IMG/VR virus record: IMGVR_UViG_3300005683_000068
Location: 1 to 64,000 of that record
Reading direction: 5' to 3' (one strand)
Length of the DNA stretch: 64,000 nucleotides
Origin: a virus
Taxonomy: Duplodnaviria; Caudoviricetes
The notes below the pieces were generated by a model. It was not told the origin of the DNA and did no database searches. It saw only the letters and a list, made by a program, of their open reading frames with translations. Below are positions 34,405 through 53,320 of this stretch, in pieces (positions within the stretch are counted from its first letter, which is position 1; each line of letters begins with the position of its first letter). Made by a program: the position numbers and the translations under genes.

Positions 34405-35322
34405 TCACACTAAATCCCTCAAAGATCGAATCCCCAATTCATCACACAAGGCACGCCAAGCATCACGATTGATGCTATCGGACACAAGTTTGAAATTAGG
34501 ACACCCGGCATACGGAAGTTTCACCAAATGACGATTACTATTCCAAACGTCATTCCCTTCTACTATGCTCCTAAATACCTTAGTAGTGTTTTTGAGTTTG
34601 CCTGTCAGAAACTTAGATGCCGTGACCTCTCCAACACCCTTAATGCCAACAATACCATCGGATTTGCAACCAGCAATGGCTTTCACGTCTATCCACTGGG
34701 GAGGGGAAACACCATACTCCCTTGATAAAGATAATTCGTTATAAGACCGCTTCTTGTTTGGATCCCACAATATCACTCTCTTACCAAGTAACTGGTAAAA
34801 ATCCTTATCTGATCCAACAATAATAGCATCATCCTTCTTTGGTAGATTCAAGCAAATTGATGCAATCACATCGTCGGCTTCATAGCCAGGAGCATAACAA
34901 ATGTTTCTGAATCCCAAATCAAACAATCGTTCTTTCCTCAACAGTAAAAACTGTTGTTCCATTTTCCTTACCAAGGATTTCTGTTCATACGATAAGGCAT
35001 ATCTCTGCTCAACCCTATTCGCCTTATAGTCAGGATAATCTCTCTCACGGAGATATGGTCCACAATCAAAACAAAAAACAAGATGATTAGAACCCAATGT
35101 CTCCTGAAATTGAATGATGTCTCTTAGAAAACCATAAGTAACACCAGTAGGAATTTCGTTATGAGAAAGATTCCCAGTGCTGTAAAAAGCACGCCATGCA
35201 AGATAATTACAATCGAGCAATAACCATGTCTTACTCATCTGATGATTCTCCTCCAAATGGAATCCAACCCAACTCATACAAGAACAGAAACAAAAAGTAA
35301 TCACCAAGATGCAATAACACAT
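34405..35322 (-). CDS. 5'-3' exonuclease / flap endonuclease (T4 RNase H-like)
   Basis: LDCNY, YKANR, GYEADD, SDKDF, H3TH (AIAGCKSDGIVGIKGVGEVTA); probable start 35238. Confidence 0.9.
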   Translation of the reverse strand: MCYCILVITFCFCSCMSWVGFHLEENHQMSKTWLLLDCNYLAWRAFYSTGNLSHNEIPTGVTYGFLRDIIQFQETLGSNHLVFCFDCGPYLRERDYPDYKANRVEQRYALSYEQKSLVRKMEQQFLLLRKERLFDLGFRNICYAPGYEADDVIASICLNLPKKDDAIIVGSDKDFYQLLGKRVILWDPNKKRSYNELSLSREYGVSPPQWIDVKAIAGCKSDGIVGIKGVGEVTASKFLTGKLKNTTKVFRSIVEGNDVWNSNRHLVKLPYAGCPNFKLVSDSINRDAWRALCDELGIRSLRDLV

Positions 35323-35411: not shown

Positions 35412-36488
35412 TCATACATACCTTGGTTTCCTTTCCACCTTGCAAGCATCTTCAATCCTATTCCACACTTCAGAGACAATGCGGTGGAGTTGCTTCTCTA
35501 AATTGTTTTCTTCAATGTAGGCAATGAGGTCTTTCTCCTCCATTGATGCATCAAACTCCTCAGCACGGATATTACCTCCTTTCTTTACCCAATGCTTCTC
35601 ATCTAGTAGATATTTTACACAGCAACCTACATCATCAATACCAGCACTGTGATAAATAGGAAACTCCACTGCCCTATCCTTGCCGGCTATTCTGTTTTTC
35701 TTGACTCTGGCTTTGACTAGAATGCCAAGCTGACGGTCCTTGTCTTTGTACTTCCTCTTAATCTGCTGCCTCACAGAAGTCCATATTTCCAATGTGGCAT
35801 AAAATTTCATAGAGTGACCACCACTCCTTGTCTTTGTTTCAAACATGGAGTTTATAGCGTCCCTGGTTTGAGCAACTACGATTAGAATGCTGCCAGTTTT
35901 CTTTAACTCAGAAACAGCACGTCTAAGATTACCAGAATTCGATTTGGCCTTACCATCACCAAACGATCCTTTTATCTCTTTGTCCTTTCGTGCCCGTTTC
36001 TTATTCTCCACAAACTTCTTATCGTCGGCTTCTGAAGTCAACGAATCCATACTGTCAAGAATACAAACAAATGGGTTGCCGACTTCCCGCAAGTCATCCA
36101 GATAGTAGTAAAACTCCTCTATAGTGCCTAAATACTTAAAGGTTATTCTATCAGCTAGTTTGCTACCAAAGAATTTCCTTACATCCATGAGAACACCCCG
36201 CTCTACATCAATGTAGATCAGGTCATAGTCCTCAAAGTTTGGGTTGTTGGCAGCTTCTGCCAAAGCACTAAGACACAACCAAGTCTTGCCGCTGTTACTA
36301 TCTCCTACATAGAGATAGTAATGTCCTTTGACAAATGTTCCAGTACGCTTACCTGTGCAAGCTAGATTGAGTGTAGTACATCCGCTACTAAGCAAATCAG
36401 CAATCTTCAATTCCGATGAATTACACTTCTTTCTCAGGGCAGTTTTTAATTTGTCCACATCAGTCATGCTGCTTGTCCTTTCTGCCAT
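35412..36488 (-). CDS. RecA/UvsX-like recombinase
   Basis: GDSNSGKT, IDVERG, ILDSMDSL, RSGGHSMKFYA. Confidence 0.85.
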   Translation of the reverse strand: MAERTSSMTDVDKLKTALRKKCNSSELKIADLLSSGCTTLNLACTGKRTGTFVKGHYYLYVGDSNSGKTWLCLSALAEAANNPNFEDYDLIYIDVERGVLMDVRKFFGSKLADRITFKYLGTIEEFYYYLDDLREVGNPFVCILDSMDSLTSEADDKKFVENKKRARKDKEIKGSFGDGKAKSNSGNLRRAVSELKKTGSILIVVAQTRDAINSMFETKTRSGGHSMKFYATLEIWTSVRQQIKRKYKDKDRQLGILVKARVKKNRIAGKDRAVEFPIYHSAGIDDVGCCVKYLLDEKHWVKKGGNIRAEEFDASMEEKDLIAYIEENNLEKQLHRIVSEVWNRIEDACKVERKPRYV

Positions 36489-36852: not shown

Positions 36853-38094
36853 TTAGCCTTTTTTAGACTTAGGTTTAGCTTTCTCATCAACAATCTTACA
36901 ATCATCAGGATCAACAATGTAAGGATCAGAACGATCCTTACACATCACATGGAAGAGTCCGTTGCGAATTCGCTTGATCTTTCCTGTGTGCCATTCTCCT
37001 CTGTATTTGAACTTGACAGTAGTTCCGACTGTGAGGTCCCCAGATTCTCCTCCAGAATCATCTTCATCTCCTTCATCATCTTCGTCCTCATCTTCTTCCT
37101 CGTCATCAGCTTCCTCGTCATCATCCTCCACTTCCTCATCATCTTCGTCCTCATCTTCTTCCTCGTCATCAGCTTCCTCGTCATCTTCATCTTTCACCTT
37201 ACCTTTCTTCTTAGATTGCTTTGATTTTGCATTCGCCTTCGGCTCATCCTCATCCTCATCCTCGTCCTCTTCCTCGTCCTCGTCATCATCCTCCACTTCC
37301 TCATCCTCAGATTCCTCATCCTCAGATTCCTGAAGGAAGATTTTTTTCAACTCGGCATAACCAAGTTCACGAATCATCTCATCCAAGTTATAAGCATCAT
37401 CAATAACACCTTCTCCTAACTGGGACTTTCTTTCCTTAAATTCAATGTTTGAACAATCATAATAACTGTACCCCTTGCCAGATTCCTCAGACGCACCAAC
37501 ACGCAATGACAATCCTTTTTCAGGATCATGGAAATTGTCATATCGTTCTTGATCCTCATCATCAGCCTCGTTAATCTTCTTAGACAAGTGCCTGCCGAAC
37601 AAATGGTAGCTCTCATCCCAAACCTGAACCACCCCAGCATTATCTCCATCAAGAGGTATTACATTGAACAACTGCCGCTTCTTAGGTGCAAGGCTCTGCA
37701 ACAAATCTTCGTCCACTTCTGGATCACGGGCCAGCTTTGCACGGTGCTCACAAATAGGACATTTCTTACCACTGTTTTTTGACGGGCAAACATAGCTCTC
37801 GTTGTTAGCACCTACTCCACGATGAACATAAAACGTACGCTCAAAATGCAAGACTCCTGGATCGGCATTCGGATTGCCTTTCTGAGTCACTTCATACGGA
37901 ATGACATTCAAACGATACACACCCTCCTTCTTTGGTTTGAAAAAGGTACAACCTTCTGGCACGTTAAGGCTGGTTCGTTCAAATGAACCACTCTTTTTCG
38001 CAGTCTCACGGGCACTACTCAACCGACGCTCACGCTTTGCTTTCTTAGTAGCCATTTCCATCCTCACTTTCATTGGAATTCCGATCACGCTCAA
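36853..38094 (-). CDS. Single-stranded DNA-binding protein (gp32-like) with long acidic linker and C-terminal KOW/SH3-like domain
   Basis: CP...CPICE zinc motif, VQVWDES, D/E tract; probable start MATKK at 38055. Confidence 0.75.
   Translation of the reverse strand: MSVIGIPMKVRMEMATKKAKRERRLSSARETAKKSGSFERTSLNVPEGCTFFKPKKEGVYRLNVIPYEVTQKGNPNADPGVLHFERTFYVHRGVGANNESYVCPSKNSGKKCPICEHRAKLARDPEVDEDLLQSLAPKKRQLFNVIPLDGDNAGVVQVWDESYHLFGRHLSKKINEADDEDQERYDNFHDPEKGLSLRVGASEESGKGYSYYDCSNIEFKERKSQLGEGVIDDAYNLDEMIRELGYAELKKIFLQESEDEESEDEEVEDDDEDEEEDEDEDEDEPKANAKSKQSKKKGKVKDEDDEEADDEEEDEDEDDEEVEDDDEEADDEEEDEDEDDEGDEDDSGGESGDLTVGTTVKFKYRGEWHTGKIKRIRNGLFHVMCKDRSDPYIVDPDDCKIVDEKAKPKSKKG
37073..37185. repeat. 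50-bp direct repeat (63-bp period) in the SSB acidic tract
   Basis: Identical copies at 37073-37122 and 37136-37185. Confidence 0.8.
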
Positions 38095-38740: not shown

Positions 38741-39667
38741 TCACTTCTTATTTGAATAAATTTCATAACATGACAAGATCAATCCGGGTCGCCCACAATC
38801 ATAAAAATGATCCCTCATTACTTGTCCAATGAAATATGCTCTGGCTGCTAGTTTGCCTCCACCAAGCACCACAGAGGACATATAGCCTAGCAGCATACGA
38901 CGGATTTGCTCTGGTTCATCATCTATAATTCTTAGCAAGTTCGCTATCACTGCCCATTTAGATTGTGGATTCAACATTGCCCGTGCCAAGTCGATCATAG
39001 GTTTCTTTGATCCACCAGCATGAACTACCTCTAACTGCTCATCCTCTGTCTCCAACAAAGACACCTGATTCAGAAACACAAGTGCCTTGCGTGCTGAGCC
39101 TGCCGCTGCTTCCACAATGGCATCTCGTACCGTCTCCAGGATTTTGATCTTCTCTTTCTGGCACACTTCTTGGAGTAACTGCTCCATGTGCTTTGGAGGT
39201 AATGCCTTTACCCGCACTTCATTACAACGGTTGACTACGGTTTCCTTCAACTTACCTGGATTGGTTGTGGCCAGCATGAAATACACATGACTAGGCGTAT
39301 CCTCGAGCATCTTCAACAGAGCATCTTGAGCATCCCCAGTCAACTGGTGTGCTTCATCTATCAACCAAATACGGCACAGTCCATTCATTGGAGATAGTTT
39401 CATCCTGCTCCGTATGTCCCGCACCGTGTTAATTCCATTGAAGTCAGCACAGTTGACCTCAAAGAAATCAGAATCCCCACATGACAATTTATGCTGAAGA
39501 ATTCTGGCTAGAGTTGTCTTGCCACAACCAGATGGGCCGGTAAACAACAACGCATGAGGGAATCGTTCTTTGTTCTTCAATAGCTTTTGGAGTGATGCTA
39601 CAGCAGCATCTTGTCCAACCACTTGCTTAAATAATTTGGGTCGGTACTTAAGATAAAACTCAGACAT
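38741..39667 (-). CDS. Clamp loader, DnaX (gamma/tau)-like AAA+
   Basis: KYRPKLFKQVVGQ, GPSGCGKTT, IDEAH, ALLKMLED, TVVNRC. Confidence 0.9.
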   Translation of the reverse strand: MSEFYLKYRPKLFKQVVGQDAAVASLQKLLKNKERFPHALLFTGPSGCGKTTLARILQHKLSCGDSDFFEVNCADFNGINTVRDIRSRMKLSPMNGLCRIWLIDEAHQLTGDAQDALLKMLEDTPSHVYFMLATTNPGKLKETVVNRCNEVRVKALPPKHMEQLLQEVCQKEKIKILETVRDAIVEAAAGSARKALVFLNQVSLLETEDEQLEVVHAGGSKKPMIDLARAMLNPQSKWAVIANLLRIIDDEPEQIRRMLLGYMSSVVLGGGKLAARAYFIGQVMRDHFYDCGRPGLILSCYEIYSNKK

Positions 39668-41043
39668 TATTTTGGGAACTCCACTTGTTTCTTGTCATAC
39701 CAAGAACCACCTTCTGGACAAACCTCGGCCTCAATCTCTAGTGGTACTATGATCCATTTCCATAGTTTAGGAACCACTACTGTTGTCACCTCCTTTACCA
39801 AGGACAAGTATTCATTTAGCTCATCTACTCTTACATCAGCCAAAATACTGTCATGGATTTGTCCAATCACCTTACTCCGCATCCTCAACTTTCGCATTCG
39901 TCTGAGCAGTATAATTAGACTCTTAAGCAACAAATGAAAGGATGATCCTTGATTGGCCATGTTGATTACTTGATTGCGTCGCATGATGCCACGCAACACA
40001 AATCCAGTAAGTGTTTTTACATAACCACATTCCAAATAGTTACTCCACACATCTCTACGCCACTTAGCATACACATGAAACTTGTTCCAGAATCGTTCCT
40101 CCACTTCTTTAATGTGTCGCTCGAATGTTCCCTTCTTTGGTATTTTATTAGGATCAAGATCACCTAATTCTTTAATGCCCCTCTTTGCTAAAACATCACC
40201 AATTGGAACACCATCATTTGTTTGCAGTCCCATATCTAATATCGCTTGCCACAACTCCGCAGCACAATCAACATAGTAACTACCATAGAACTCTGGGAAC
40301 ACAAACTTATTCTTCGCACAATATCTAGTATGTTTGTTTACCTGATCTACTGGCAAGCAATAGCACTCAGAAGCCATGTCACGATGCATATCCTTGGTTG
40401 GATCCTTGATATAATCTATCAACACCGGGTCTTTGCAATAGCAAGCTATACCACGTACCTCAATACCACCAAAGTCGTTTTCAACTAGAACACTGTTCTT
40501 TCTAGCTATCACGCAAGTTCTAATCGGCTTGCCCATCACAGGATCACGGACTGGGATGTTCTGCCAGTTAGGCAGCTCGCCACTAGAGCGATAGCTCGAC
40601 ACTGTGTTCAGATTAAACACTGGATGCAAAAAACCATTCGCATCTACTTCACGGCGAATGTTCTCAAGGTACGTTCCACGCATCTTTTGCTTCTTGGCCA
40701 GCAAGAAGTAGGTTTTTACAAACGAATGATCCACATGATTAAAGGCTTCTTCATCATTGTTTCCTTTAGTACGGTCGAATCCAAGTACATCAAACACAAT
40801 CGCTCCAAGCTGCCTGCGATTGCCCAAAACAGCCTTCTGTCCAAAACGCTTAGTCCATAGCTTCCATACTTTGTCATTGCGGAGTTCCTGTTCCAGTGTA
40901 AGGATTTCATTTTCAACATCCTTAATCGCTTTGTTGAGATACTTGGTATCTATCCTAATACCATTAGCCTCAATCTCTGCAAAAGCGATACTGCCTTCTC
41001 GCAGCAGATCATAGGCTTCTGGTGTCGCTGGAATCATTTTCAT
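39667..41043 (-). CDS. Family A DNA polymerase (polymerase domain only)
   Basis: Motif A DFGGIEVR, motif B RYCAKNKFVFPEFYG, motif C QIHDS. Confidence 0.9.
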   Translation of the reverse strand: MKMIPATPEAYDLLREGSIAFAEIEANGIRIDTKYLNKAIKDVENEILTLEQELRNDKVWKLWTKRFGQKAVLGNRRQLGAIVFDVLGFDRTKGNNDEEAFNHVDHSFVKTYFLLAKKQKMRGTYLENIRREVDANGFLHPVFNLNTVSSYRSSGELPNWQNIPVRDPVMGKPIRTCVIARKNSVLVENDFGGIEVRGIACYCKDPVLIDYIKDPTKDMHRDMASECYCLPVDQVNKHTRYCAKNKFVFPEFYGSYYVDCAAELWQAILDMGLQTNDGVPIGDVLAKRGIKELGDLDPNKIPKKGTFERHIKEVEERFWNKFHVYAKWRRDVWSNYLECGYVKTLTGFVLRGIMRRNQVINMANQGSSFHLLLKSLIILLRRMRKLRMRSKVIGQIHDSILADVRVDELNEYLSLVKEVTTVVVPKLWKWIIVPLEIEAEVCPEGGSWYDKKQVEFPK

Positions 41044-41064
41044 CGTAATTGAAATCCTGGATTC

Positions 41065-42285
41065 TTATTGATCTTGATTGCCCGTCGCTTTATAGAACAC
41101 CTTTTGCTTCTGATAAAGTTTGTACTCTAGCAATGAGTCAAGTCCATTGTAGAGTAGAAGTTCTTTCATATCACATTTATCAATGGTGTTTACTTTGGTG
41201 TTTCCTTTCGCTTTCAAGTAAGGTTTTATGTGTTGATCGTAGCTCTCGAATCCCAATCTCACAAACGATTGAAACTTCAGTCCAGTAATATCAGGTCTGT
41301 TATCTTCAATATGAGCAGCCAGTATAGTATCCCAATGCCAATTCCTTACTGGATGTCCAAGCACAGCCCTGGTCCAGCGTTCTTCAAACTTGAGATTGCT
41401 GGCTATTTTATTTAGTGGCCCACGCAGTAACTCACTCATTTGTTGGATCACCTCACCACGCCAAGGAAACGCCATTGTGTGCTTCCCATCAAAACACACT
41501 GAGCATGATACGATCCTCGCATAAAGATCATCTGGTTTGAGGCAATTGGTTTCATAGTCGAAGGCTAGATCAACCGCCCCTTTAGACCATTCCAGCAACA
41601 ACCTAGCGGCATGGTTGGGATCGTACTCAATATGTACCTTCGATTTCCAATCAGGTACTTTCTTCCAAGGACGACCGGATAGCTTAAAAGCCTCCTTGAG
41701 ATGATGAGTCATATACATCTCAGTCATGGGGTCCTTGCCACGTAGCAAGAACGCTGGATGATATGTAGGACAGATCCAAGCGTTGGGTTTCTGACAAGGG
41801 ATTTGCCAACCTACCCATCTACCTATAGCTCCTATGTCCTCCTTCCATATACCACCAATCAAAGATTTTACCGCTGTGCCTCCAAGCGGGATAATTATCT
41901 CCGGTTGAAGTTCTTGGATGGTGTTGAACAAATTGGGCCGGCAGTATTGGATCTCCTTGTCATCTGGAGTTCTGTTATCTTCTGGACGGCAAATAATAGC
42001 ATTGGTTAGCCAACAATCCCGCCTCATATTCACACCAAACCTAAGCAGCAAATCCATCAGGTATTGACCTGAGTTGCCCACCAATTGCTTACCTTGCTCA
42101 TCTTCATTTTTACCAGGAGCCTCTGCAACAATCAAAACCCTGCGTTCTCCTTTCCCTGTTGGTTTCATCTTAGGAGATATGCAATGTTTGTAGAGACCGC
42201 ACTTCCCACACAAAGGAGTTTTTGGCATCTCCTCTTCTTTGACCATATAACGTGATGAGAAAAAACCTTGCCTCATCCCAACCAT
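41065..42285 (-). CDS. Family-4 uracil-DNA glycosylase fused to DnaQ-like 3'-5' exonuclease (N-terminal part of split PolA)
   Basis: CxxC..., AEAPG.NED.QG..LVG.SG, TYHPA; exonuclease motifs DYET, NLKFE, YNGLD. Confidence 0.85.
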   Translation of the reverse strand: MVGMRQGFFSSRYMVKEEEMPKTPLCGKCGLYKHCISPKMKPTGKGERRVLIVAEAPGKNEDEQGKQLVGNSGQYLMDLLLRFGVNMRRDCWLTNAIICRPEDNRTPDDKEIQYCRPNLFNTIQELQPEIIIPLGGTAVKSLIGGIWKEDIGAIGRWVGWQIPCQKPNAWICPTYHPAFLLRGKDPMTEMYMTHHLKEAFKLSGRPWKKVPDWKSKVHIEYDPNHAARLLLEWSKGAVDLAFDYETNCLKPDDLYARIVSCSVCFDGKHTMAFPWRGEVIQQMSELLRGPLNKIASNLKFEERWTRAVLGHPVRNWHWDTILAAHIEDNRPDITGLKFQSFVRLGFESYDQHIKPYLKAKGNTKVNTIDKCDMKELLLYNGLDSLLEYKLYQKQKVFYKATGNQDQ

Positions 42286-42710
42286 TTGATAAGCTCCTGT
42301 TCACTCACCATGAAACAATCGCTGGCTGTCTGATCAAATCGAAGAATATAAACCCAACCAGACGCATCAACCCCTTTTATCTTAATGTTATTAGGACCCC
42401 ACTCCATGCCACAAATCACAGCAGAACAATCATCACAGACTTCATTTGAAACCCTGACAATTTGCCCTATGCTAAATTTAGCTGCTGGAGGTTTTGGTAT
42501 TCGTTTTAGCCATTCTGGCATCCTTCCTTCATTCGCTTTGAATGCCTTGATACTATCCAACAATTCCTTTTGCTCTCGTTTTGTTACTACAGTTTCATCT
42601 AATTCCTTCGCTCTCCTTCCACCAAGCATAGCCTTCCTTGTTAAAACATCCATAGAGATTTCTGACACGTCTTTACTCTTCTTCACTGGTTCCTTTTTCT
42701 TCTTGATCAT
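42273..42710 (-). CDS. Hypothetical protein with KOW/SH3-like (HspQ/YccV-like) C-domain
   Basis: AKFSIGQIVRV motif; AGGAG RBS before ATG 42710. Confidence 0.45.
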   Translation of the reverse strand: MIKKKKEPVKKSKDVSEISMDVLTRKAMLGGRRAKELDETVVTKREQKELLDSIKAFKANEGRMPEWLKRIPKPPAAKFSIGQIVRVSNEVCDDCSAVICGMEWGPNNIKIKGVDASGWVYILRFDQTASDCFMVSEQELIKWLG

Positions 42711-43725
42711 TGTCATTCTCCTTAGGGGTTTTTTCAAGACAAGCAATGTAAGTATAGTTTCCGCCATTCACCTTCAAACGATCCTTGGTAATCTCACACT
42801 CATGGTATCTTTTACATAGCTCACTAAGTAGCTTTGGCGATACCATGAACGACAGCGGTTCCCCTTTGTAGGCAAGTTTTTTAGATTCGCTGTACCAGCC
42901 TGACACACCGATGCCTTTGATCCGTAGCTTGCCAGGACGTAACTCTACTAACACTTGATTGGTTTCAGTGTTCTCAGAACTAAACACCTCTGCTTTCTCG
43001 GCTGCATCAGACAAACCTTTAGGCAGCACAGTAGAAGTGCCTTTTACCTTGAGCAGTTCAGTAAGATCAGGATACTGCTCAATATACTTGCGACAAGACA
43101 CAATCAAACCTGTCTTGTTCTTGAAGTGAATCCAAGATTCCGTCACACTAAACTCCTTCAAATCGAGCACAGTCAGGCATTTTATAGCATAACTTCTCAC
43201 CAAAATAGCTTCACTAACACCAACAACCATCTTGTATCTGCTCAATTGGAAGTTATCACAAGCCTCAATCCACTTTGGACTGATATTCACACAAGTTGCC
43301 CAAAACTGAGACTCGTCCTTACCAGCACATTCATGAACTAAGGACACAGCCTCAGTAAAACCTTCTGGAACCGGCTGCCAGTTTTTTGGCTTGTCCACAT
43401 TCTTAAGAGGCAGCAGAACATCCTTATCCATCCTAATCCCTGCTTGCCGACGTTTACCTACAATCACAAGCTCTGATTCATTGGGTATTAGCTCGATGCT
43501 TTCCTCAGCCAGTTTCTGCAAGATAGAAACCAATGGCTTTGCCTGTACAACACCAGTAAACTTCAGATTGGTTTTCTGACGGCACGACACCTCATCATTG
43601 TAAGTGATTAGATTTCCTTCCTGAAACACAAAACAACTTGATTGTTCTATCACCTCACGGGAAGACAATCCCGGAGCAACAGCATCAAGTTGTTCCAACA
43701 GTTCTTGTCTATTAACTACAATCAT
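42673..43725 (-). CDS. Sliding clamp (DnaN/beta-like)
   Basis: About 330-aa three-domain pattern (VNRQELLEQLDAV...ITYNDEV...IEACDNFQL); next to DnaX and PolA. Confidence 0.75.
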   Translation of the reverse strand: MIVVNRQELLEQLDAVAPGLSSREVIEQSSCFVFQEGNLITYNDEVSCRQKTNLKFTGVVQAKPLVSILQKLAEESIELIPNESELVIVGKRRQAGIRMDKDVLLPLKNVDKPKNWQPVPEGFTEAVSLVHECAGKDESQFWATCVNISPKWIEACDNFQLSRYKMVVGVSEAILVRSYAIKCLTVLDLKEFSVTESWIHFKNKTGLIVSCRKYIEQYPDLTELLKVKGTSTVLPKGLSDAAEKAEVFSSENTETNQVLVELRPGKLRIKGIGVSGWYSESKKLAYKGEPLSFMVSPKLLSELCKRYHECEITKDRLKVNGGNYTYIACLEKTPKENDNDQEEKGTSEEE

Positions 43726-44657
43726 TCTTGATCCTTCCTAAAAACAAGGACGTTTTGATGACTACGAACAAGCTTCTTGTTCCCTCTATCAAAAATAGAA
43801 CTAGTTCTCAAACAAGCTGTTCCAACAGGGGTACAATACACGGCATCTGTATGATACACACAACCAGCTTCCTCAAAAGCACGAATGCTATCACCTACAA
43901 AGTCACGACACTTCTTAAACTTCCTATCATAAAAGGGGGCTACTACCCAAACAGCAAAGCCGCCCGGCTTCAATCGTCTCACAACCCGTTTAACAATAGC
44001 ACGATGCACCACTTCAAATTCTTCATATACCAATCTGGATATATCTCCATCCAATTTGGAATACACCTCTATGTTCCCATAAGGAGGGCATGAGAACAAC
44101 AAATCACACTCTGGAGCCTTCTTTGATGCCTTAAGGCTGTCACCAACTACCCATTCTGGCCTTGGAACGTCCAACTTAGGACAAGGGCCGTTCTCCCAAT
44201 TAGCCTCATTGGCTTTTATTTGATCTGGGCGAATATCAATGCCGTAGTAATTGAGATCCATCATGGATGCCACAATACCACGGACACTACCACCACAGAA
44301 AGGATCAAACACCATCCCTCCCTTCTCTGGCCCCCACCACCTATAGATGAGTTCACACAAGACTGGATCAAACACTGACACAAAGGAAATAGCAGTACGC
44401 CCATACTTCTCATTGAAGAAGTTATGAGTACGATCGTAGATGCGAGATTCCTTTGTATCACCACGTCCCTCATCACTCTTGATGTTAAGCCACTTCAACC
44501 AGCGGCGTTTGCATACAATCCAATCATAGTCCCTACCATTCAGAACAGAAAATGGCGGAACTCCATACCTCCCAACTAAAGCACCTCTAGCCGGAGGTAC
44601 ATATTCTGTGACCAGTCCCTTGCGAACTGTTTGTAGGTCCTTGTTCTTGCTTCGCAT
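43722..44657 (-). CDS. SAM-dependent DNA amino-methyltransferase-fold protein
   Basis: VFDPFCGGSVRG (motif I), YGIDIR, LFSCPPY, LKPGG. Confidence 0.8.
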   Translation of the reverse strand: MRSKNKDLQTVRKGLVTEYVPPARGALVGRYGVPPFSVLNGRDYDWIVCKRRWLKWLNIKSDEGRGDTKESRIYDRTHNFFNEKYGRTAISFVSVFDPVLCELIYRWWGPEKGGMVFDPFCGGSVRGIVASMMDLNYYGIDIRPDQIKANEANWENGPCPKLDVPRPEWVVGDSLKASKKAPECDLLFSCPPYGNIEVYSKLDGDISRLVYEEFEVVHRAIVKRVVRRLKPGGFAVWVVAPFYDRKFKKCRDFVGDSIRAFEEAGCVYHTDAVYCTPVGTACLRTSSIFDRGNKKLVRSHQNVLVFRKDQE

Positions 44658-44673
44658 GGTATTCCCCTATACC

Positions 44674-45456
44674 TTAATATCGTTTCCACTCACCACGACA
44701 CCCAGTCACCCACAAACAATCCCCGTCCTTTACAAAAGGCATGGCTTTCGCTGCATAAAACGGATCAAGAATATCACCATCAGGGAGCCTGATGTCTAAC
44801 ATGGGCTTCTCGTAAGGAATCCTCAACTTTACAAATTCAAGTCTTGGAACCTCCTTAACATACTTGAGTGCTGTCTCTATGATCTTCTCTTTACTTGCCA
44901 AGCTCGAAACAGCAACAGCAATCACCTTAACATCACTACCAGCCAATCCAACCAAAACACCAGCGGCCACCAATCCCGATCCAGTTGGGACTATCACTCT
45001 GCGAATATCACTTGGCAGATTGTTTGTTTGTACTGCGGTATCCAACACAGCTAGTTTTGGATTCCATCTAACACAACCCCCAAGTCCCCGAGCAAATTCT
45101 TTTGCTCTAGAACGATATACAGAAGGATATCCAGGGCGAACTTCATGAACCTCGGCCCCCATATCAATGGCCCATTGGGTTGATCTGGTACGCTTAGCAC
45201 GAGCAGGAACAAAAACAATACCCCTCGTGTTGCATCGCTTAGCAGCATCAGCCACATATACTTGTTGTGCTGAAGATGCTGAACAACCAACCACCATCGG
45301 TGTTCCTTTTGGACAGTCTTTTGCCATTGCAAGATACTGTCTCACCTTTGAACCGCTAGGCATATCAGCTGAGATGAAACATGCCTTGTCATCTCTCTTG
45401 GCATACCATCCATCAAAAACATCAACTCTGGTCAGCACATCAACCTTAGGTTTCAT
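44674..45456 (-). CDS. Fold-type II PLP-dependent enzyme (ACC deaminase/D-Cys desulfhydrase-like)
   Basis: KRDD...SGSKVRQ (PLP lysine), VPTGSG, LDPFYAAKA, WVTG. Confidence 0.8.
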   Translation of the reverse strand: MKPKVDVLTRVDVFDGWYAKRDDKACFISADMPSGSKVRQYLAMAKDCPKGTPMVVGCSASSAQQVYVADAAKRCNTRGIVFVPARAKRTRSTQWAIDMGAEVHEVRPGYPSVYRSRAKEFARGLGGCVRWNPKLAVLDTAVQTNNLPSDIRRVIVPTGSGLVAAGVLVGLAGSDVKVIAVAVSSLASKEKIIETALKYVKEVPRLEFVKLRIPYEKPMLDIRLPDGDILDPFYAAKAMPFVKDGDCLWVTGCRGEWKRY

Positions 45457-45531
45457 TGAAAGTTCTCCGAACGAAAAAACCCCCATAAGGATTTCTTATG
45501 GGGGTCTAAGAGGCACAATCATAACCGAAAA

Positions 45532-46429: not shown

Positions 46430-47836
46430 TCACAGGATACTAACAATCGCCGGGTTCGCTATGGCCAAACAACCAGCAATGTGAACGCATTTTTCCATAT
46501 CGCAAACTTCGTTTCTTCGAACTATCCAATTCCAACGCATAATCCCAGCACGCCTCTCATCAACCGATGAATTCAAACCAATCATTCCAGTCACATGGGC
46601 CAGCTTACGCTTGTCCTCAGAGAAGTCCTCCATTCCTAAAAGATCCTTGTCCTTTTTGTAAGCAGCGGCCTTAGTTTGTGTAGCTGTAACAACCAAGCAA
46701 TGTAAATCAAGCGAAATGCGACGTAAGTATTCCCAAGTCTCATTTACCTGATCTCTAGACTCTGCCCGCTTTGTCATCGGGGCTAACAGATCAGCATAAT
46801 CAAGAATTATTACATCCGGGGTCCATTCTTCCTCATCGGCTGTTCTTTGCAACTCAGCCAATACACCCTCAGCACTAATTTCTCTAGCTGTGTAACAATG
46901 CAAATGAAGATAATCCCTACCCCGAACCCTGGCCACCTTCATAAACCTCTCAACAGCCAAATCCCACCTAAGAGGTTTGGTGTTACGATCCCTATAACCA
47001 GTTACAATCGCACTTCTTCCTTCCAAATCAATTCCTTTGGGAATTGAAAAACTACCACCTCTTAATGGACGCTGACAAGCCCTTGCTGCAAATCTTCTAA
47101 TCGTTGCTTCTTGCCCCAAATCTCCTAGTTCAAAATAAGCCACTCTACGCTTCTGAAGCAAGGCCCGCCAAGCCAAATCAAGCAACACAAAACTCTTGCC
47201 TCTTTTTTCAGGTCCTAAAAAGGAAATGAAACTCTCAGATCGAAAATCCTCCCCCAAATACAAACCAAGATCACCAGGATACTCCACAAGCGGCGGCTCA
47301 AATGATTTCTCAAAGGCGTTTCTAACAGCATCTTGATCATCAAGTAAATTGATGTACTGCCCTTTTCCAAGTCTAATGGGTTTGTGCTTCTTATGCAATT
47401 CTAAGGCTTCATCGATCTTCTCTGCATCAACCAAATCCATCATTTCATTGCTGATGTTCCTAAACGCCACAGCATTAAACAACCTGCCAGCAACATCAAC
47501 AAGATACTCGCTACTAACTTCCAACCCGTGCTCATACTCACTGGACAGGTCCTCAAGAAACCCCTCCACATAATCTAAGGTTTCCTTATCTTTCGTTCTT
47601 TCAGCCCAATCATCAAACATCGCCTGGATAGCTCTTTTTGGTGCTTGATCATTCTGATTGCAGTATTGAATGCACCATTTGGCAATGGTGTTCGCCCATT
47701 TGTTCGCAAACAAACCTGTAGGAATCCATTTTGATTTAACCAATCTAAGAAACTTTGTATCAACAATCATACCAATCAACACAAGACGTTCCTTTGAACC
47801 ACGCTTACTATGATCTGTTCGCTTCATACTTCTCAA
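46430..47836 (-). CDS. Replicative helicase (DnaB/SF4)
   Basis: GPEKRGKS, FELGD, ILDYAD, VTATQ, FSEDKRK. Confidence 0.85.
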   Translation of the reverse strand: MRSMKRTDHSKRGSKERLVLIGMIVDTKFLRLVKSKWIPTGLFANKWANTIAKWCIQYCNQNDQAPKRAIQAMFDDWAERTKDKETLDYVEGFLEDLSSEYEHGLEVSSEYLVDVAGRLFNAVAFRNISNEMMDLVDAEKIDEALELHKKHKPIRLGKGQYINLLDDQDAVRNAFEKSFEPPLVEYPGDLGLYLGEDFRSESFISFLGPEKRGKSFVLLDLAWRALLQKRRVAYFELGDLGQEATIRRFAARACQRPLRGGSFSIPKGIDLEGRSAIVTGYRDRNTKPLRWDLAVERFMKVARVRGRDYLHLHCYTAREISAEGVLAELQRTADEEEWTPDVIILDYADLLAPMTKRAESRDQVNETWEYLRRISLDLHCLVVTATQTKAAAYKKDKDLLGMEDFSEDKRKLAHVTGMIGLNSSVDERRAGIMRWNWIVRRNEVCDMEKCVHIAGCLAIANPAIVSIL

Positions 47837-49238
47837 TCCCTTTCATCATAATGTCCCACGATTGAAAACGAGAAGTCTCAGATAGATAGCACTGAAATCT
47901 AACTGAATTTGGATCGAACACCATACACTTAACACCACCCTTCCATTTTTGTTGTCTCTCTACAATAATATAACAATACGTACTCCACCATTCAGTGAAC
48001 CAGTCAAGAATGAACGAAACAGGATCAAGGTAAGCACGTGACCATATAGCCGCTGCTTGTGTAATACCACGATTGTTTTTCCTTCTGTGAGCATAATCAA
48101 CAGCATCCTGCTTATATGTCTCTCTAGCCTCTTTGAAATCAGCTTCGGAAATATGATGAAACAAAAACGACTCTATTCTGTCATTGAGATGCTTAATGTT
48201 GTTGTAAGATTCAACAACCACCTTCGTTATTTCTTGACTGGCGGCAGGCCATTCTTTAGTGAGTATTTTTTCTACCAATCGTTTGGTGTCTTCATTAAGC
48301 ACCAGTGAATTTTGCTTTGTTGTGTTTTCAAGAAGACTCCAATCATCCCATCTCTGTTTAAGTTGAAGGCAATTCTTCAATTTGAGTTTGATTGATCTAC
48401 CAGCATCAGAACAATACCAATCAATTACCTTCTGGACATTGTCCTTGCCTACTTTCTTTCTTAACTGAGCAATGTACTTTGCTTGTTTTGAAGGATTCCA
48501 AAGATGCGATTTAATCCAACCTTCTTTGATACATAGCTTTTTAAGTTGCTTGGCACAGGCAATATCAAACTTTGTTATCTGAGGATTTGTTTTGTCTAAT
48601 TTTGATCTTGGTGAATTGTTTTTGTTTAAGAAAGGCATAGAAGAAATCCCCTTGTTGGTGTCGTTTTCGCAGAAAACGACTTCATCACTTTCTTTATTGT
48701 CCCTATATACTATACTATGGTATGCGTTTTCGCCTACATCCTGTAGGCGTTTTCGCCTACATCCTGTAGGCGTTTTCGCACACACCCCCTCATCCAACAA
48801 CTCATCAATCAATACTGTCCTTCCTTTCCTCATAAGGAAAGTGTTTCTTGGACTCAAAGCACTTATCAACAATCTCTGTCTGCCACTTCGAGTTTTTCTA
48901 AACCCGATTTGTTTTACCAATCCTAATTTAACCAATTGAGAGATGATTTTAGACACTCTCAGTTTGGTTACGCATAATTCTCCTGCAAGCCATTTATTGG
49001 TTCCAAAGAATGGCTCCTTTGATGACGTGTTGATTTTGGTTATAAGAGAAAGAGTAGCAGCTTCTATCCAACTTAACTTACCTTTCTTAATCAACTCTCT
49101 GGTAAGAGATGTGAAATACAATCCTGGTTTTTCTTTTGGAGTGTTTTCTTCCTCACATTCTCTTTCAAATTGTTCTAAATCTTCCTCTGATGTTATTTCA
49201 TGTCGTTTCATTTTTGGGCTCCTGCTTTGGTCCAACAA
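47808..49238 (-). CDS. Replication initiator-like protein (N-terminal HTH)
   Basis: FFGTNKWLAGELCVTKLRVSKIISQLVKLGLV wHTH; internal iteron-like repeats; upstream of DnaB. Confidence 0.65.
   Translation of the reverse strand: MLDQSRSPKMKRHEITSEEDLEQFERECEEENTPKEKPGLYFTSLTRELIKKGKLSWIEAATLSLITKINTSSKEPFFGTNKWLAGELCVTKLRVSKIISQLVKLGLVKQIGFRKTRSGRQRLLISALSPRNTFLMRKGRTVLIDELLDEGVCAKTPTGCRRKRLQDVGENAYHSIVYRDNKESDEVVFCENDTNKGISSMPFLNKNNSPRSKLDKTNPQITKFDIACAKQLKKLCIKEGWIKSHLWNPSKQAKYIAQLRKKVGKDNVQKVIDWYCSDAGRSIKLKLKNCLQLKQRWDDWSLLENTTKQNSLVLNEDTKRLVEKILTKEWPAASQEITKVVVESYNNIKHLNDRIESFLFHHISEADFKEARETYKQDAVDYAHRRKNNRGITQAAAIWSRAYLDPVSFILDWFTEWWSTYCYIIVERQQKWKGGVKCMVFDPNSVRFQCYLSETSRFQSWDIMMKGIEKYEANRS
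48662..48779. repeat. Iteron-like repeats (putative origin)
   Basis: 23-bp unit gcgttttcgcctacatcctgtag x2 plus a partial copy (48724-48779); CGTTTTCGC core x4; AT-rich flanks. Confidence 0.7.
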
Positions 49239-49593
49239 ATTCTGTTGGGGGCAGTGGAATGGACCTATTCTGCGGACGCCACAAATGCAAGCAGTATGGA
49301 TGGTGATTTACATATTCGCTTTTAGCCGGATGGAGTTGCATCACTACCTCATGAGGTTCAAAGAACAAATCCTTCACCCAACACATTTCTTCCCAAGTTG
49401 GGCAGCGATTCTTAAGAGATACAGAAACATGATCCCAACCCTCGCCATCACTAACTATTATTCCTAATAAGGTAGCACCACTAAATCTATATGGAACCAT
49501 AAATGCTCCATTGTTACCATAAGATTTATCACTGGATAGCCTGCCTTCCTTAATGCGATATTGTTCAATCAATACAGTAGCGTCGGGTTTCAT
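49198..49593 (-). CDS. Conserved phage protein (DUF7694-like)
   Basis: GWDHVSVS...CPTWEEMCWVKDLFF...HP..SEYVNHHPYCLHLW. Confidence 0.7.
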   Translation of the reverse strand: MKPDATVLIEQYRIKEGRLSSDKSYGNNGAFMVPYRFSGATLLGIIVSDGEGWDHVSVSLKNRCPTWEEMCWVKDLFFEPHEVVMQLHPAKSEYVNHHPYCLHLWRPQNRSIPLPPTEFVGPKQEPKNETT

Positions 49594-50456
49594 TCCAATT
49601 CCTTTCTTAGGAGTTTAATTTCTTTCTCTGAAGCTGAACCAGGGTCTTTAGCATCTAAGACAATGTTAATAGTTACACCTGGACGAACAGCCAACAGATT
49701 AACAAGAGCAAGTGCTCGTTTCTGTGCTTCTTTCTCATTGTCAAAAACAACCACCCGCTTTGGATACTCAGCTATTCGATTAGCCTGAGTTTGATTCCAA
49801 TTAACACCAAACAAAGCCACAGCACCAGGACCGATACGCATAGCATCGAAGGGACCTTCGCAAACAAGAACCACGTCATGGCAGTAATCCTCTCCATAAA
49901 GTAAATGACGAAGTGGAATCAACTCCTCTGTAGGTTTAGCCGAAACATATCTAGGCTCAGCATCACCAATTGTTCTTGTTGTCCAACTAACTATCCTCCC
50001 ATGAAAATGAACCGGAATAAACACTCTCCATTGTAAATGCTGTGCAACGCTTATAGCCCCCAATTGCCACAAAGTACGTGCTTGCGTCGCATTGACCCCG
50101 CGAGACGCTATAAAACGCTTGTGCGGGGCTTGTAGTGGGGTTATACAGCGTGGCAATACTAGTGTTTTTGACACCTTCCTTTCAATTGCGGTTTTTCGTG
50201 AAACATTGCTCAGAGATTGATAACACACGGCCAATGAGACTTTGGTAAGTAAAGACAAGGTCTCTGCTGCCTTGTGATAGCCACACTGCCAGCAAGAACA
50301 GTAGTTGCCATCCATGTTGTATCCACAGTACAACTTGTTTGGATCACTCCCGCCACCGCAATGCGGACATTGGAACTGAATCCAACCAGTTCTTGTACCT
50401 TTACCCTCTGTCTTGAAATGAACATTATATTCCATCAATAGTTCTTGGAAGGTCAT
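49590..50456 (-). CDS. DNA primase (Zn finger + TOPRIM)
   Basis: CPHC...CWQC; VCEGPFDA, VFDNE. Confidence 0.88.
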   Translation of the reverse strand: MTFQELLMEYNVHFKTEGKGTRTGWIQFQCPHCGGGSDPNKLYCGYNMDGNYCSCWQCGYHKAAETLSLLTKVSLAVCYQSLSNVSRKTAIERKVSKTLVLPRCITPLQAPHKRFIASRGVNATQARTLWQLGAISVAQHLQWRVFIPVHFHGRIVSWTTRTIGDAEPRYVSAKPTEELIPLRHLLYGEDYCHDVVLVCEGPFDAMRIGPGAVALFGVNWNQTQANRIAEYPKRVVVFDNEKEAQKRALALVNLLAVRPGVTINIVLDAKDPGSASEKEIKLLRKELE

Positions 50457-51182: not shown

Positions 51183-52538
51183 TTAGGTATTCCTTATGCT
51201 TTGGATTAGCTCGTCAAACACATTACCAGAATGCTTGGGTTGTTTGCCATCAAGCACTCCAGTCAAGACTTTCTGTTTCTTGTGCAACAGTTTGCAAGTT
51301 TTATCCTCAATAGTATCTCTGCCAACAAGATAATAACACGTCACATGATCTTTCTGTCCAATGCGATGAGCACGATCCTCCGCTTGGATATGTTCACCTG
51401 GAGTCCATCCTAGTTCACAAAAGGCTACAGCGGTGGCGGCTGTCCCGTTCCAGCCCACACCAGCAGCTTGTATATTGCCAATAAATAAGCGGCAGTTAGG
51501 ATCATGTTGGAACTTGTCAATCGCATTCTGTCTCCGTTTATTATTGACACTACCATCAACAACGACACTAAGAGGCTTAAAATGTCCATACAATTCTCCT
51601 ATGATCTTTTTGTGAATGCCAAACAGAATTAACTTGCCGGTACTCTCAGCAAGGAAATTTTCTACCCATTCTATTACAGATGGTAATTTCAATTCAGCAA
51701 CAAGCCGCTTAAGATAACCAGCTTTTGCTAGTTCTTCGGCCTTCAGTGCTGCTCTGGCTTTACTCGGATGAGCGGTTCTCAACCAATCTACAAAATCAAC
51801 CAGTGCTTTTTTATACTCATGAGGCTTTGACAGCTTCATGGGCACAACGGCTCTGATTTTGTTTGGTAGGTCTTGTAGTACCTCTTTTTTGAGTCTGCGT
51901 ACCATACAAGATCGTTTCAAAATCCTATTGAGTTCCTTCACCTTGGTAGCACCATTGAACTTCCAACCCCAAGGCGTGAATTCAGGTTTGCAGTACCTAA
52001 ATCCAAATGCCTTATAACTAGTAAATTCTTTAGGCCAGAGCATGTTGAGAATGGGCCATAATTCAATTGGGCGATTGATTAGTGGTGTCCCACTAAGGGC
52101 CAAAACATGCTCCACTCCCTTGCAAAGCATCCGACAGGCTTTTGTCCTTCGTGTGCTTCTTGACTTGGTATAATGAACCTCATCAAGGATAACCAATTGT
52201 GGTTTTAGTTTTTTAATAACCGGCAACCACTTATGAAGAATATCATAGTTGAGAATGATTAACTCCGGTTTGTTCAAACTCCACTTGGCCTGTGGTACTT
52301 TTGTACCCTCAAGAACCTCAGCCCGTAAATTAACATGGAGAGCAGCTTCTCGCTCCCAGTTATACTTAATACTGGCTGGGCAGACTACAATAATTGGTTT
52401 GAGTTTCCTTCGTTTGGCAAAAGACAATGCCAAGAAAGTTTTACCCAATCCCATTTCCCATGCTACTAGAGCACGACCATTGTAAACCTCATCTATACGA
52501 TTGAGGTCTTCAAGTTGAAACGGATAAGGATTAGTCAT
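51183..52538 (-). CDS. SNF2/HARP-like SF2 helicase
   Basis: EMGLGKT, LDEVH, LSGTP, QAEDRAHRIGQ. Confidence 0.9.
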   Translation of the reverse strand: MTNPYPFQLEDLNRIDEVYNGRALVAWEMGLGKTFLALSFAKRRKLKPIIVVCPASIKYNWEREAALHVNLRAEVLEGTKVPQAKWSLNKPELIILNYDILHKWLPVIKKLKPQLVILDEVHYTKSRSTRRTKACRMLCKGVEHVLALSGTPLINRPIELWPILNMLWPKEFTSYKAFGFRYCKPEFTPWGWKFNGATKVKELNRILKRSCMVRRLKKEVLQDLPNKIRAVVPMKLSKPHEYKKALVDFVDWLRTAHPSKARAALKAEELAKAGYLKRLVAELKLPSVIEWVENFLAESTGKLILFGIHKKIIGELYGHFKPLSVVVDGSVNNKRRQNAIDKFQHDPNCRLFIGNIQAAGVGWNGTAATAVAFCELGWTPGEHIQAEDRAHRIGQKDHVTCYYLVGRDTIEDKTCKLLHKKQKVLTGVLDGKQPKHSGNVFDELIQSIRNT

Positions 52539-52562: not shown

Positions 52563-52805
52563 TTAAGATACAAGACGCATGGCATCTCCCAAACTGCAAG
52601 AATACTCATATTCAGTAATCACATTCTCATTTCTAAGCCATTTAAGAATTTCCGGCAGAGAATACACAGGACCCATTGCAAGTTCCACAACAGGTTTAGG
52701 AAAGGTAGGATAACGACTCCTCCAAACACAAACAAGTGTTCTACTACAACGAGCTATTTTGGCAATTTCGGTATTGCCTACCAAATGTTGAGGTTTAATC
52801 ATCAT
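52563..52805 (-). CDS. AlpA/excisionase-like HTH protein
   Basis: LVGNTEIAKIARCSRTLVCVWRSRYPTFPKP. Confidence 0.65.
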   Translation of the reverse strand: MMIKPQHLVGNTEIAKIARCSRTLVCVWRSRYPTFPKPVVELAMGPVYSLPEILKWLRNENVITEYEYSCSLGDAMRLVS

Positions 52806-53320
52806 TGCAGTACCTTTCTGATTTCTAGGAATGATTCTGTAATCCTATTTTTGGTCCATCCCAAAGAATACAAATATCTTCGTAACACTTGGCGGATAGT
52901 AGCAGGTTTCTTTCCTACTATATCCTTGCGGAGCCCTGGTGGAGTCCGCAGTACCAACTTGACTATTTTTTGAGCATCTTTGCTAAGGTCTTCCAAAAGT
53001 ACAAACAAGTGGAATTCCTTATCCTCGTGCAAGTCTGGATCAAGTTCCATGAAGATAACCCTTGCGTGGAGTTTGCTTTCCTTGCGTCTGTAATCCAATA
53101 GGACATGCCACAACACAAAGCGAACATAAGTGGCAAAGGACGTTCCGTGTTTAGGATCATAGCGTCTGTAAGCCATTACAAATGCCAATCCTGCCTGTTC
53201 TAATAAGTCATAGAAGTTACCTCCATACTTGGCTCTGAACTTGTGGATAGTGTAATAGATCAGTTTCTCCACATCGTAAAACTGATCTTGTATTATGTGA
53301 TTTTCAAGCAATACATTCAT
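52802..53320 (-). CDS. Phage sigma factor-like protein
   Basis: DLLEQAGLAFVMAYRRYDPKHGTSFATYV (sigma70 region 2). Confidence 0.75.
   Translation of the reverse strand: MNVLLENHIIQDQFYDVEKLIYYTIHKFRAKYGGNFYDLLEQAGLAFVMAYRRYDPKHGTSFATYVRFVLWHVLLDYRRKESKLHARVIFMELDPDLHEDKEFHLFVLLEDLSKDAQKIVKLVLRTPPGLRKDIVGKKPATIRQVLRRYLYSLGWTKNRITESFLEIRKVLQ

Follow-up and report, generated by a model that had tools for sequence, protein, structure and literature searches.

The 64,000-nucleotide stretch of viral DNA analysed here (hereafter the window) covers positions 1 to 64,000 of the 74,217-bp IMG/VR record IMGVR_UViG_3300005683_000068 and encodes a pyridoxal 5'-phosphate (PLP)-dependent enzyme and an S-adenosylmethionine (SAM)-dependent methyltransferase (MTase)-fold protein in adjoining genes. 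The two proteins are very probably functionally coupled. Their relatives adjoin one another in several phage lineages and in both gene orders, and they are fused in three topologies, which agrees with the initial annotation of this DNA both in treating the pair as a functional unit and in expecting the genes to co-occur in other viruses. The PLP enzyme is, by profile comparison, a remote full-length homologue of gp52 from Pseudomonas phage M6, and the MTase-fold protein belongs by its motifs to the amino-methyltransferase type. We tentatively propose that the pair places a SAM-derived, amine-bearing adduct on DNA. The virus record has a CheckV completeness of 100%, and the probable source of the DNA sample is a bioreactor-sludge metagenome.

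Coupling of the PLP enzyme and the MTase-fold protein across viruses

Ninety-three loci around homologues of the PLP enzyme in public contigs were grouped into 46 PLP clusters at 90% identity. The PLP gene is fused to an MTase gene in one cluster, abuts one in 11 and has one within 0.7-8 kb in five, and 15 clusters are too short to judge. MTase-linked forms branch deeply in the PLP tree; most of the unlinked forms belong to one derived clade of soil phages. A conserved neighbour of 335-401 amino acids in this PLP-only soil lineage was considered as a candidate MTase and rejected (hhalign probability 0.1; no PHROG or Pfam match). An MTase search in five PLP-only IMG/VR records, which are 7-30% complete, found none. 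The soil-phage locus L067, which has no MTase within 10 kb, encodes a Mom-like DNA-modification protein (phrog_1384, 1.3e-9; L067:12189-12911, plus strand) 1.3 kb downstream of its PLP gene; no Mom-like gene lies beside the other PLP loci examined, and L067 is thus a single case.

A PLP profile search of 1.84 billion representative proteins retrieved 1,136 clusters at 50% identity, including 708 with E <=1e-10. Among the best 150 representatives of the PLP family, 56 are at least 450 amino acids long, and 53 of these 56 carry an MTase of the window type. In 46 fused forms the MTase is interrupted by the PLP domain at one site, which separates the helix of motif II from motif III; the PLP domain follows or precedes the MTase in three forms each. 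Most fused forms begin with a ParB-type DNA-binding domain. The inserted form is present in cultured phages as gp70 of Pseudanabaena phage Pam4 (L095:5056-7545), ORF1 of Erythrobacter phage vB_EliS-R6L (L096) and a counterpart in Erythrobacter phage ZS04. The public labels of these proteins name one part only: gp70 is a 'pyridoxal-phosphate dependent enzyme', R6L ORF1 is a 'DNA modification methylase' and the ZS04 protein is a methylase. Likewise, the PLP domain of ORF1 goes unnoticed in the vB_EliS-R6L paper, and the gene that follows ORF1 is again a clamp.

Viewed from the MTase, 14 of 80 viral IMG/VR loci contain a smaller, more divergent gp52-like PLP gene, which abuts the MTase gene in 11 of the 14. 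Clamp homologues are also located near the pair in loci L002, L017 and L118. A predicted complex of the MTase and the PLP enzyme scored 0.01, which carries no weight either way.

Kinship of the PLP enzyme with DNA-acting decarboxylases

Two phage PLP enzymes, M6 gp52 and gp226 of Salmonella phage ViI, have been shown to remove the carboxyl group from amino acids carried on thymine in DNA (PMC8989533). Both have been modelled on 1j0a, a homologue of 1-aminocyclopropane-1-carboxylate (ACC) deaminase, and the catalytic lysine of gp52 has been named K36 (PMC8989533). In the known thymidine hypermodification systems, PLP enzymes are sometimes fused to their own installer genes (PMC8989533). The window PLP enzyme aligns with gp52 over its full length in hhalign (probability 96.9, E 1.6e-10, 225 columns). 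K37 pairs with the lysine of SFSKIRG, the PTGSGL loop pairs with SSGTVAAG, and the C-terminal FY..KA is also aligned. The window enzyme matches the PHROG families phrog_7093 (1.6e-12) and phrog_3650 (8.9e-14), and the annotation of phrog_7093, 'threonine dehydratase', is also that of gp52, which suggests a shared PHROG. With profile and Z held constant, gp52 reaches 31.6 bits, the best solved cellular enzyme 25.6, ACC deaminase 23.9 and D-cysteine desulfhydrase (DcyD) 21.3. The gap to gp52 is bridged by divergent MTase-adjacent PLP genes such as that of L118, which is 34% identical to gp52. These comparisons uphold the relationship that the initial annotation had drawn to PLP enzymes that tailor amino-acid-modified bases.

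The predicted structure assigns the window PLP protein to a known fold. Its AlphaFold2 model has a mean predicted local distance difference test (pLDDT) score of 94.9, and its best Foldseek matches are 9jqf, 1j0a and 4d8t (probability 1.0, TM-score ~0.7). On this model, the protein is a short ACC-deaminase/DcyD-like enzyme of fold type II. It matches PF00291 at 3e-8 with 33.8 bits, slightly below the cut-off of 35. K37, the PTGSGL loop and the LDP.Y..KA motif are conserved among 37 aligned homologues, and the PLP site is intact as far as these residues tell. The LDP.Y..KA motif is common to the window protein and its best structural matches, namely ACC deaminase and DcyD (1f2d, 1j0a, 4d8t) and Cj0600 (9jqf). 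However, the window protein is ~60-80 residues shorter than these enzymes and contains Ala after the conserved Tyr, where ACC deaminase and DcyD have Glu or Thr. It scores 17.4 bits against NCBIfam TIGR01275 (ACC deaminase/DcyD), far from the cut-off of 289.4, and thus lies outside that family.

The PLP family is almost confined to viral and metagenomic contigs. A phage collection yielded no match either to 12 kb of the window (megablast) or to the PLP protein (tblastn); the tblastn search fails because the PLP domains of cultured phages are too divergent, and these phages were reached via the MTase instead. In BFVD, the structural relatives of the PLP domain include a protein of 739 residues from a Megaviridae sample, labelled 'pyridoxal-phosphate dependent enzyme', and one of 241 residues from Serratia phage vB_Sru_IME250. 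The PLP fold therefore extends to giant viruses and to at least one more phage in culture.

The MTase-fold protein is a permuted amino-methyltransferase type

The window MTase matches PF01555 with 38.4 bits (1.7e-9), which passes the cut-off of 26.7, and the PHROG families phrog_12517 (7e-68) and phrog_498 (4.5e-52). The PF01555 match is circularly permuted: the gene first matches profile positions 180-218 and then positions 2-110, so that the beta-class order does not apply. Its motifs identify the protein as an amino-methyltransferase type with a gamma-like motif order (I then IV), and its conserved residues describe a SAM site that is intact and a pocket of the base-amine type (CPPY). Motif IV reads SCPPY at residues 189-193 and is not (D/N/S)PPY, as first annotated.

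The N6/N4 DNA amino-MTases of PF01555, including the phage ParB-MTase fusions of phrog_498, have motif I and the PPY loop in common with the window MTase. In contrast to these enzymes, the window MTase family has CPPY and never D/N/S-PPY, its motif order is permuted, and it contains an extra N-terminal PPF[ST] module. The window copy also lacks ParB, and no ParB domain was detected elsewhere in the genome. Public records call the relatives DNA adenine methyltransferases and, in cultured phages, DNA methylases or ParB-domain proteins. The family comprises >7,000 clusters, and we found no published biochemistry on the CPPY MTase subfamily.

Foldseek compares the AlphaFold2 model of the MTase (pLDDT 81) most closely with Trm11, TrmN, PrmA, RsmC and METTL5, a group of gamma-order base-amine methyltransferases. 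Trm11 and TrmN, which form N2-methylguanosine (m2G) in tRNA, and the rRNA enzyme RsmC are the nearest solved folds (TM-score ~0.45, identity 16-18%) and display the same I-then-IV order. However, these RNA enzymes carry THUMP or other RNA-binding domains, whereas the relatives of the window MTase carry ParB. Class-I MTase folds can also move non-methyl arms of SAM, as in Tyw2, which transfers the 3-amino-3-carboxypropyl (acp) group, and spermidine synthase, which transfers aminopropyl from decarboxylated SAM. The likeness of these two enzymes to the window MTase is in concept only. Enzymes of their types are not among the top 50 Foldseek matches, and this has no weight either way because class-I folds are all distantly alike.

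The PPF[ST] module of the MTase family also matches the N-terminus of a family-A polymerase at L002:6809-9106 (plus strand) with 67.7 bits over profile positions 10-80. The module therefore looks separable from the MTase and might serve in binding DNA or the clamp.

The 5-hydroxymethyl-deoxyuridine pathway is not detected

The complete genome contains no match to PF00303 (thymidylate-synthase type) or PF02511 (ThyX), for which the controls matched. Searches with tblastn using M6 gp51 (aGPT-Pplase), gp53 (radical SAM), gp54 (5-hydroxymethyl-deoxyuridine (5-hmdU) kinase) and gp58 found nothing in the genome, and Pfam and PHROG scans of most other open reading frames (ORFs) revealed no protein of the 5-hmdU-pathway type. 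The remark in the initial annotation that no hydroxymethylase, kinase or aGPT-type transferase is visible in the window thus extends to the complete genome. Genes of the 5-hmdU pathway, including 5-HMUDK, aGPT-Pplase and radical-SAM genes, are likewise not found beside the pairs in ~170 related loci, and no candidate installer is conserved beside the pair among the loci compared.

The window pair resembles the M6/ViI system in that each includes a short (~260-280 amino acids), phage-encoded, ACC-deaminase-like PLP enzyme of fold type II. However, the deoxyuridine monophosphate hydroxymethylase, 5-HMUDK, aGPT-Pplase and radical-SAM isomerase partners of the M6/ViI system are not found with the window pair, and the PLP partner here is a SAM-dependent MTase fold. 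The substrate and the modified base must therefore differ from those of M6/ViI.

Two neighbouring features had been suggested as possibly related to the pair. A YccV-like gene had been placed nearby, yet PF08755 has no match anywhere in the genome, where control profiles matched. The uracil-DNA glycosylase (UDG)-bearing polymerase does exist, with the UDG domain on the 3'-5' exonuclease half of a split enzyme, but nothing links UDG to the pair.

Genomic setting

The pair is located inside the replication module, between the genes for the sliding clamp and the DnaB-like replicative helicase, and nearly all genes of the window are on the minus strand (Table 1). The PLP gene lies 16 nt upstream of the MTase gene: the PLP stop codon TAA is followed by ggtataggggaatacc and then by the MTase ATG at 44657. 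The MTase stop and the clamp start overlap by 4 nt in a common ATGA. This arrangement, as initially annotated, can be read directly from the DNA. Given the AGGGGA-containing spacer and the ATGA overlap, the PLP, MTase and clamp genes look like one translationally linked unit. A longer PLP ORF extends to 45486. Because this ORF begins inside the terminator-like hairpin, we regard 45456, which is preceded by GGAG, as the real PLP start. The hairpin appears from its sequence to mark the PLP-MTase-clamp run as a separate unit.

Table 1. Features of the replication region of the window
Feature	Position	Strand	Basis or remark
Sigma-70 region 2 domain protein	52802-53320	-	PF04542, 3.2e-7; upstream of replication genes
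SNF2 helicase	51183-52538		Pfam/PHROG scan
Primase	49590-50456		Pfam/PHROG scan
476-residue ORF between DnaB-like helicase and primase	47808-49238	-	No Pfam, PHROG or NCBIfam match
DnaB-like helicase	46430-47836		Pfam/PHROG scan
Very acidic protein, 271 residues	45532-46347	-	No family match
Intrinsic-terminator-like hairpin, 13 pairs and T run	45477-45507	-	Between acidic-protein gene and PLP start
PLP fold-type-II enzyme (predicted), 260 residues	44674-45456	-	PF00291, phrog_7093, phrog_3650, AlphaFold2/Foldseek
Predicted Schiff-base lysine codon, K37 of the 260-residue form, in SGSKVRQY	45346-45348	-	Invariant in 37/37 homologues
Glycine-rich PLP phosphate-binding loop PTGSGL	44971-44988	-	G159, S160, G161 and L162 invariant or nearly so
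16-nt spacer with Shine-Dalgarno-like AGGGGA	44658-44673	-	Read from sequence
Class-I SAM MTase-fold protein, 311 residues	43722-44657	-	PF01555, phrog_12517, phrog_498
SAM-binding motif I FDPFCGG, residues 117-123	44289-44309	-	D118, F120, G122 and G123 invariant, n=38
Motif IV CPPY, residues 190-193	44079-44090	-	C190, P191, P192 and Y193 invariant
Sliding clamp, DnaN-like	42673-43725	-	phrog_947, 2.7e-28; PF00712, 6.3e-5
UDG and 3'-5' exonuclease half of family-A polymerase	41065-42285	-	Pfam/PHROG scan
Polymerase half of the same family-A enzyme, separate ORF	39667-41043	-	Pfam/PHROG scan
Clamp loader	38741-39667		Pfam/PHROG scan
gp32-like single-stranded DNA-binding protein	36853-38094		Pfam/PHROG scan
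RecA-like protein	35412-36488		Pfam/PHROG scan
5'-3' exonuclease	34405-35322		Pfam/PHROG scan

The acidic protein encoded next to the hairpin contains long Asp/Glu runs that alternate with Lys-rich stretches, and its C-terminal end resembles a helix-turn-helix by eye. Possible roles are those of a DNA mimic or of a histone-like protein. The family-A polymerase (39667-42285, minus strand) is encoded by two separate ORFs with 21 nt between them; these match the contiguous phrog_17 positions 471-825 and 828-1238.

Proposed function and alternative explanations

We propose that the two genes constitute one DNA-modification module that acts after replication. The MTase-fold enzyme would flip out a base and attach the acp end of SAM instead of a methyl group. 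The PLP enzyme would then decarboxylate the DNA-borne alpha-amino acid in the manner of M6 gp52. The resulting 3-aminopropyl base would carry a positive charge and would block host nucleases. In an equivalent route, the PLP enzyme would generate decarboxylated SAM, from which the MTase fold would transfer aminopropyl as spermidine synthase does. We consider a SAM-derived, amine-bearing DNA adduct, by either route, to be possible at somewhat less than an even chance. The particular sequence of acp transfer by the CPPY MTase fold and on-DNA decarboxylation by the PLP enzyme, yielding a 3-aminopropyl purine or cytosine without the 5-hmdU pathway, is unlikely when taken by itself. Action of the pair on DNA is likely, given the ParB domains of its relatives, the PF01555 ancestry, the replisome context and the nearby clamps, and the location beside the clamp together with the translational coupling suggests that the pair acts on newly replicated DNA. 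The formation of an amine-bearing adduct is also favoured by the invariant Cys that replaces D/N/S in motif IV.

Several observations weigh against such an adduct. The [ST]CPPY sequence is invariant in 120 of 120 MTase homologues and is thus not peculiar to MTases paired with a PLP enzyme, and 66 of the 80 MTase loci have no PLP partner; with these counts, CPPY does not signal special chemistry in the pair. PLP-linked and PLP-less MTases, both of which carry [ST]CPPY, are interleaved in the tree with at least five state changes, L157 and L134 being close sisters, and no alignment column parts the two groups. Conversely, 14 of the 46 PLP clusters have no MTase within 1.2-10 kb, as judged from local flanks rather than whole genomes. 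The homology to gp52 is remote at ~25% identity, and its margin over cellular lyases is just ~6 bits. A methyl group offers the PLP enzyme no substrate, and therefore either the arm of SAM that the whole MTase family moves bears an amino acid, or the substrate of the PLP enzyme is SAM or S-adenosylhomocysteine (SAH), or it is an adduct made by another enzyme. Non-methyl transfer by the whole family is a bold claim, and otherwise the PLP enzyme would not act on the DNA product of the MTase. Moreover, we know of no fold-type-II PLP enzyme or PF01555-type enzyme that performs the proposed steps on SAM. Our literature search on CPPY MTases, on acp or aminopropyl modification of phage DNA and on hypermodification by an MTase with a PLP enzyme yielded no description of this module.

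In one alternative, methylation is ordinary and the PLP enzyme is a helper. The MTase would methylate an exocyclic amine to give N6-methyladenine (m6A), N4-methylcytosine (m4C) or m2G, and the PLP enzyme would process a small amino-acid cofactor that this methylation uses, for instance by removing the inhibitory product SAH or by converting SAM, and would thereby boost or tune methylation. The MTase has the same catalytic core whether or not a PLP partner is present, most of its family occurs without one, the PF01555 score exceeds its cut-off, and the adenine methyltransferase labels of relatives in public records point the same way. Methyl transfer involves no alpha-amino acids other than SAM and SAH, and a fusion that channels them would be sensible. 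We give a PLP helper less than an even chance, slightly behind the adduct, and regard it as a serious contender. Against it, no precedent is known to us for a PLP enzyme that serves an MTase, the closest characterized relative of the PLP enzyme acts on DNA adducts, PLP genes also occur without an MTase within 8-10 kb, and the invariant Cys of motif IV is left without explanation.

An improbable alternative is that a different phage or host enzyme installs the adduct, which the PLP enzyme decarboxylates and whose new amine the MTase N-methylates, or that the MTase is merely co-located with the PLP gene in a modification island. Amino-MTase folds methylate many kinds of amines, with PrmA and METTL5 among the nearest structures, and the many window ORFs that lack an assigned family, like the Mom-like gene of MTase-less L067, leave room for such an installer. 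However, none is conserved beside the pair, the Mom-like neighbour is one case, and the 46 clusters in which the PLP domain sits inside the MTase speak for a closed unit of two parts. The resemblance of the MTase to tRNA and rRNA m2G/m6A MTases and a protein MTase (Trm11, TrmN, RsmC, METTL5 and PrmA) could instead indicate that the target of the pair is RNA (tRNA, rRNA or a 5' end) or an amine of a protein. A non-DNA target is very improbable, given the ParB-type domain at the start of most fused forms, the match, in permuted form, to the DNA methylase family PF01555 and the position of the genes between the clamp and the replicative helicase. We also considered the pair as an anti-restriction SAMase that proceeds via an ACC-like intermediate and rejected it, since the ParB domain and the base-flipping PPY pocket would have no role.

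Implications for phage DNA modification

To our knowledge, the PLP-tailored hypermodifications of phage DNA described so far all start from 5-hydroxymethyl-uracil. If the pair does form a SAM-derived, amine-bearing adduct, a SAM-dependent installer and a PLP tailoring enzyme would amount to a second way, independent of the first, of making DNA bases that bear an amine, with the exocyclic amine of A, C or G as the probable target. If plain methylation with a helper applies instead, a PLP enzyme that serves an MTase would itself be new. Because Pam4, vB_EliS-R6L and ZS04 are in culture, the question is directly testable by nucleoside mass spectrometry. The module is common, with 1,136 PLP clusters and a third of the best 150 representatives fused to the MTase, and an acp or aminopropyl modification would be widespread, given that the PLP family alone exceeds 1,000 clusters at 50% identity. 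Such a modification would call for caution in methylase annotation and in the interpretation of nanopore and single-molecule real-time (SMRT) sequencing. It would also represent new anti-restriction chemistry and could provide a tool to aminate DNA enzymatically, and the module would define a class of phage DNA hypermodification that has not yet been described.

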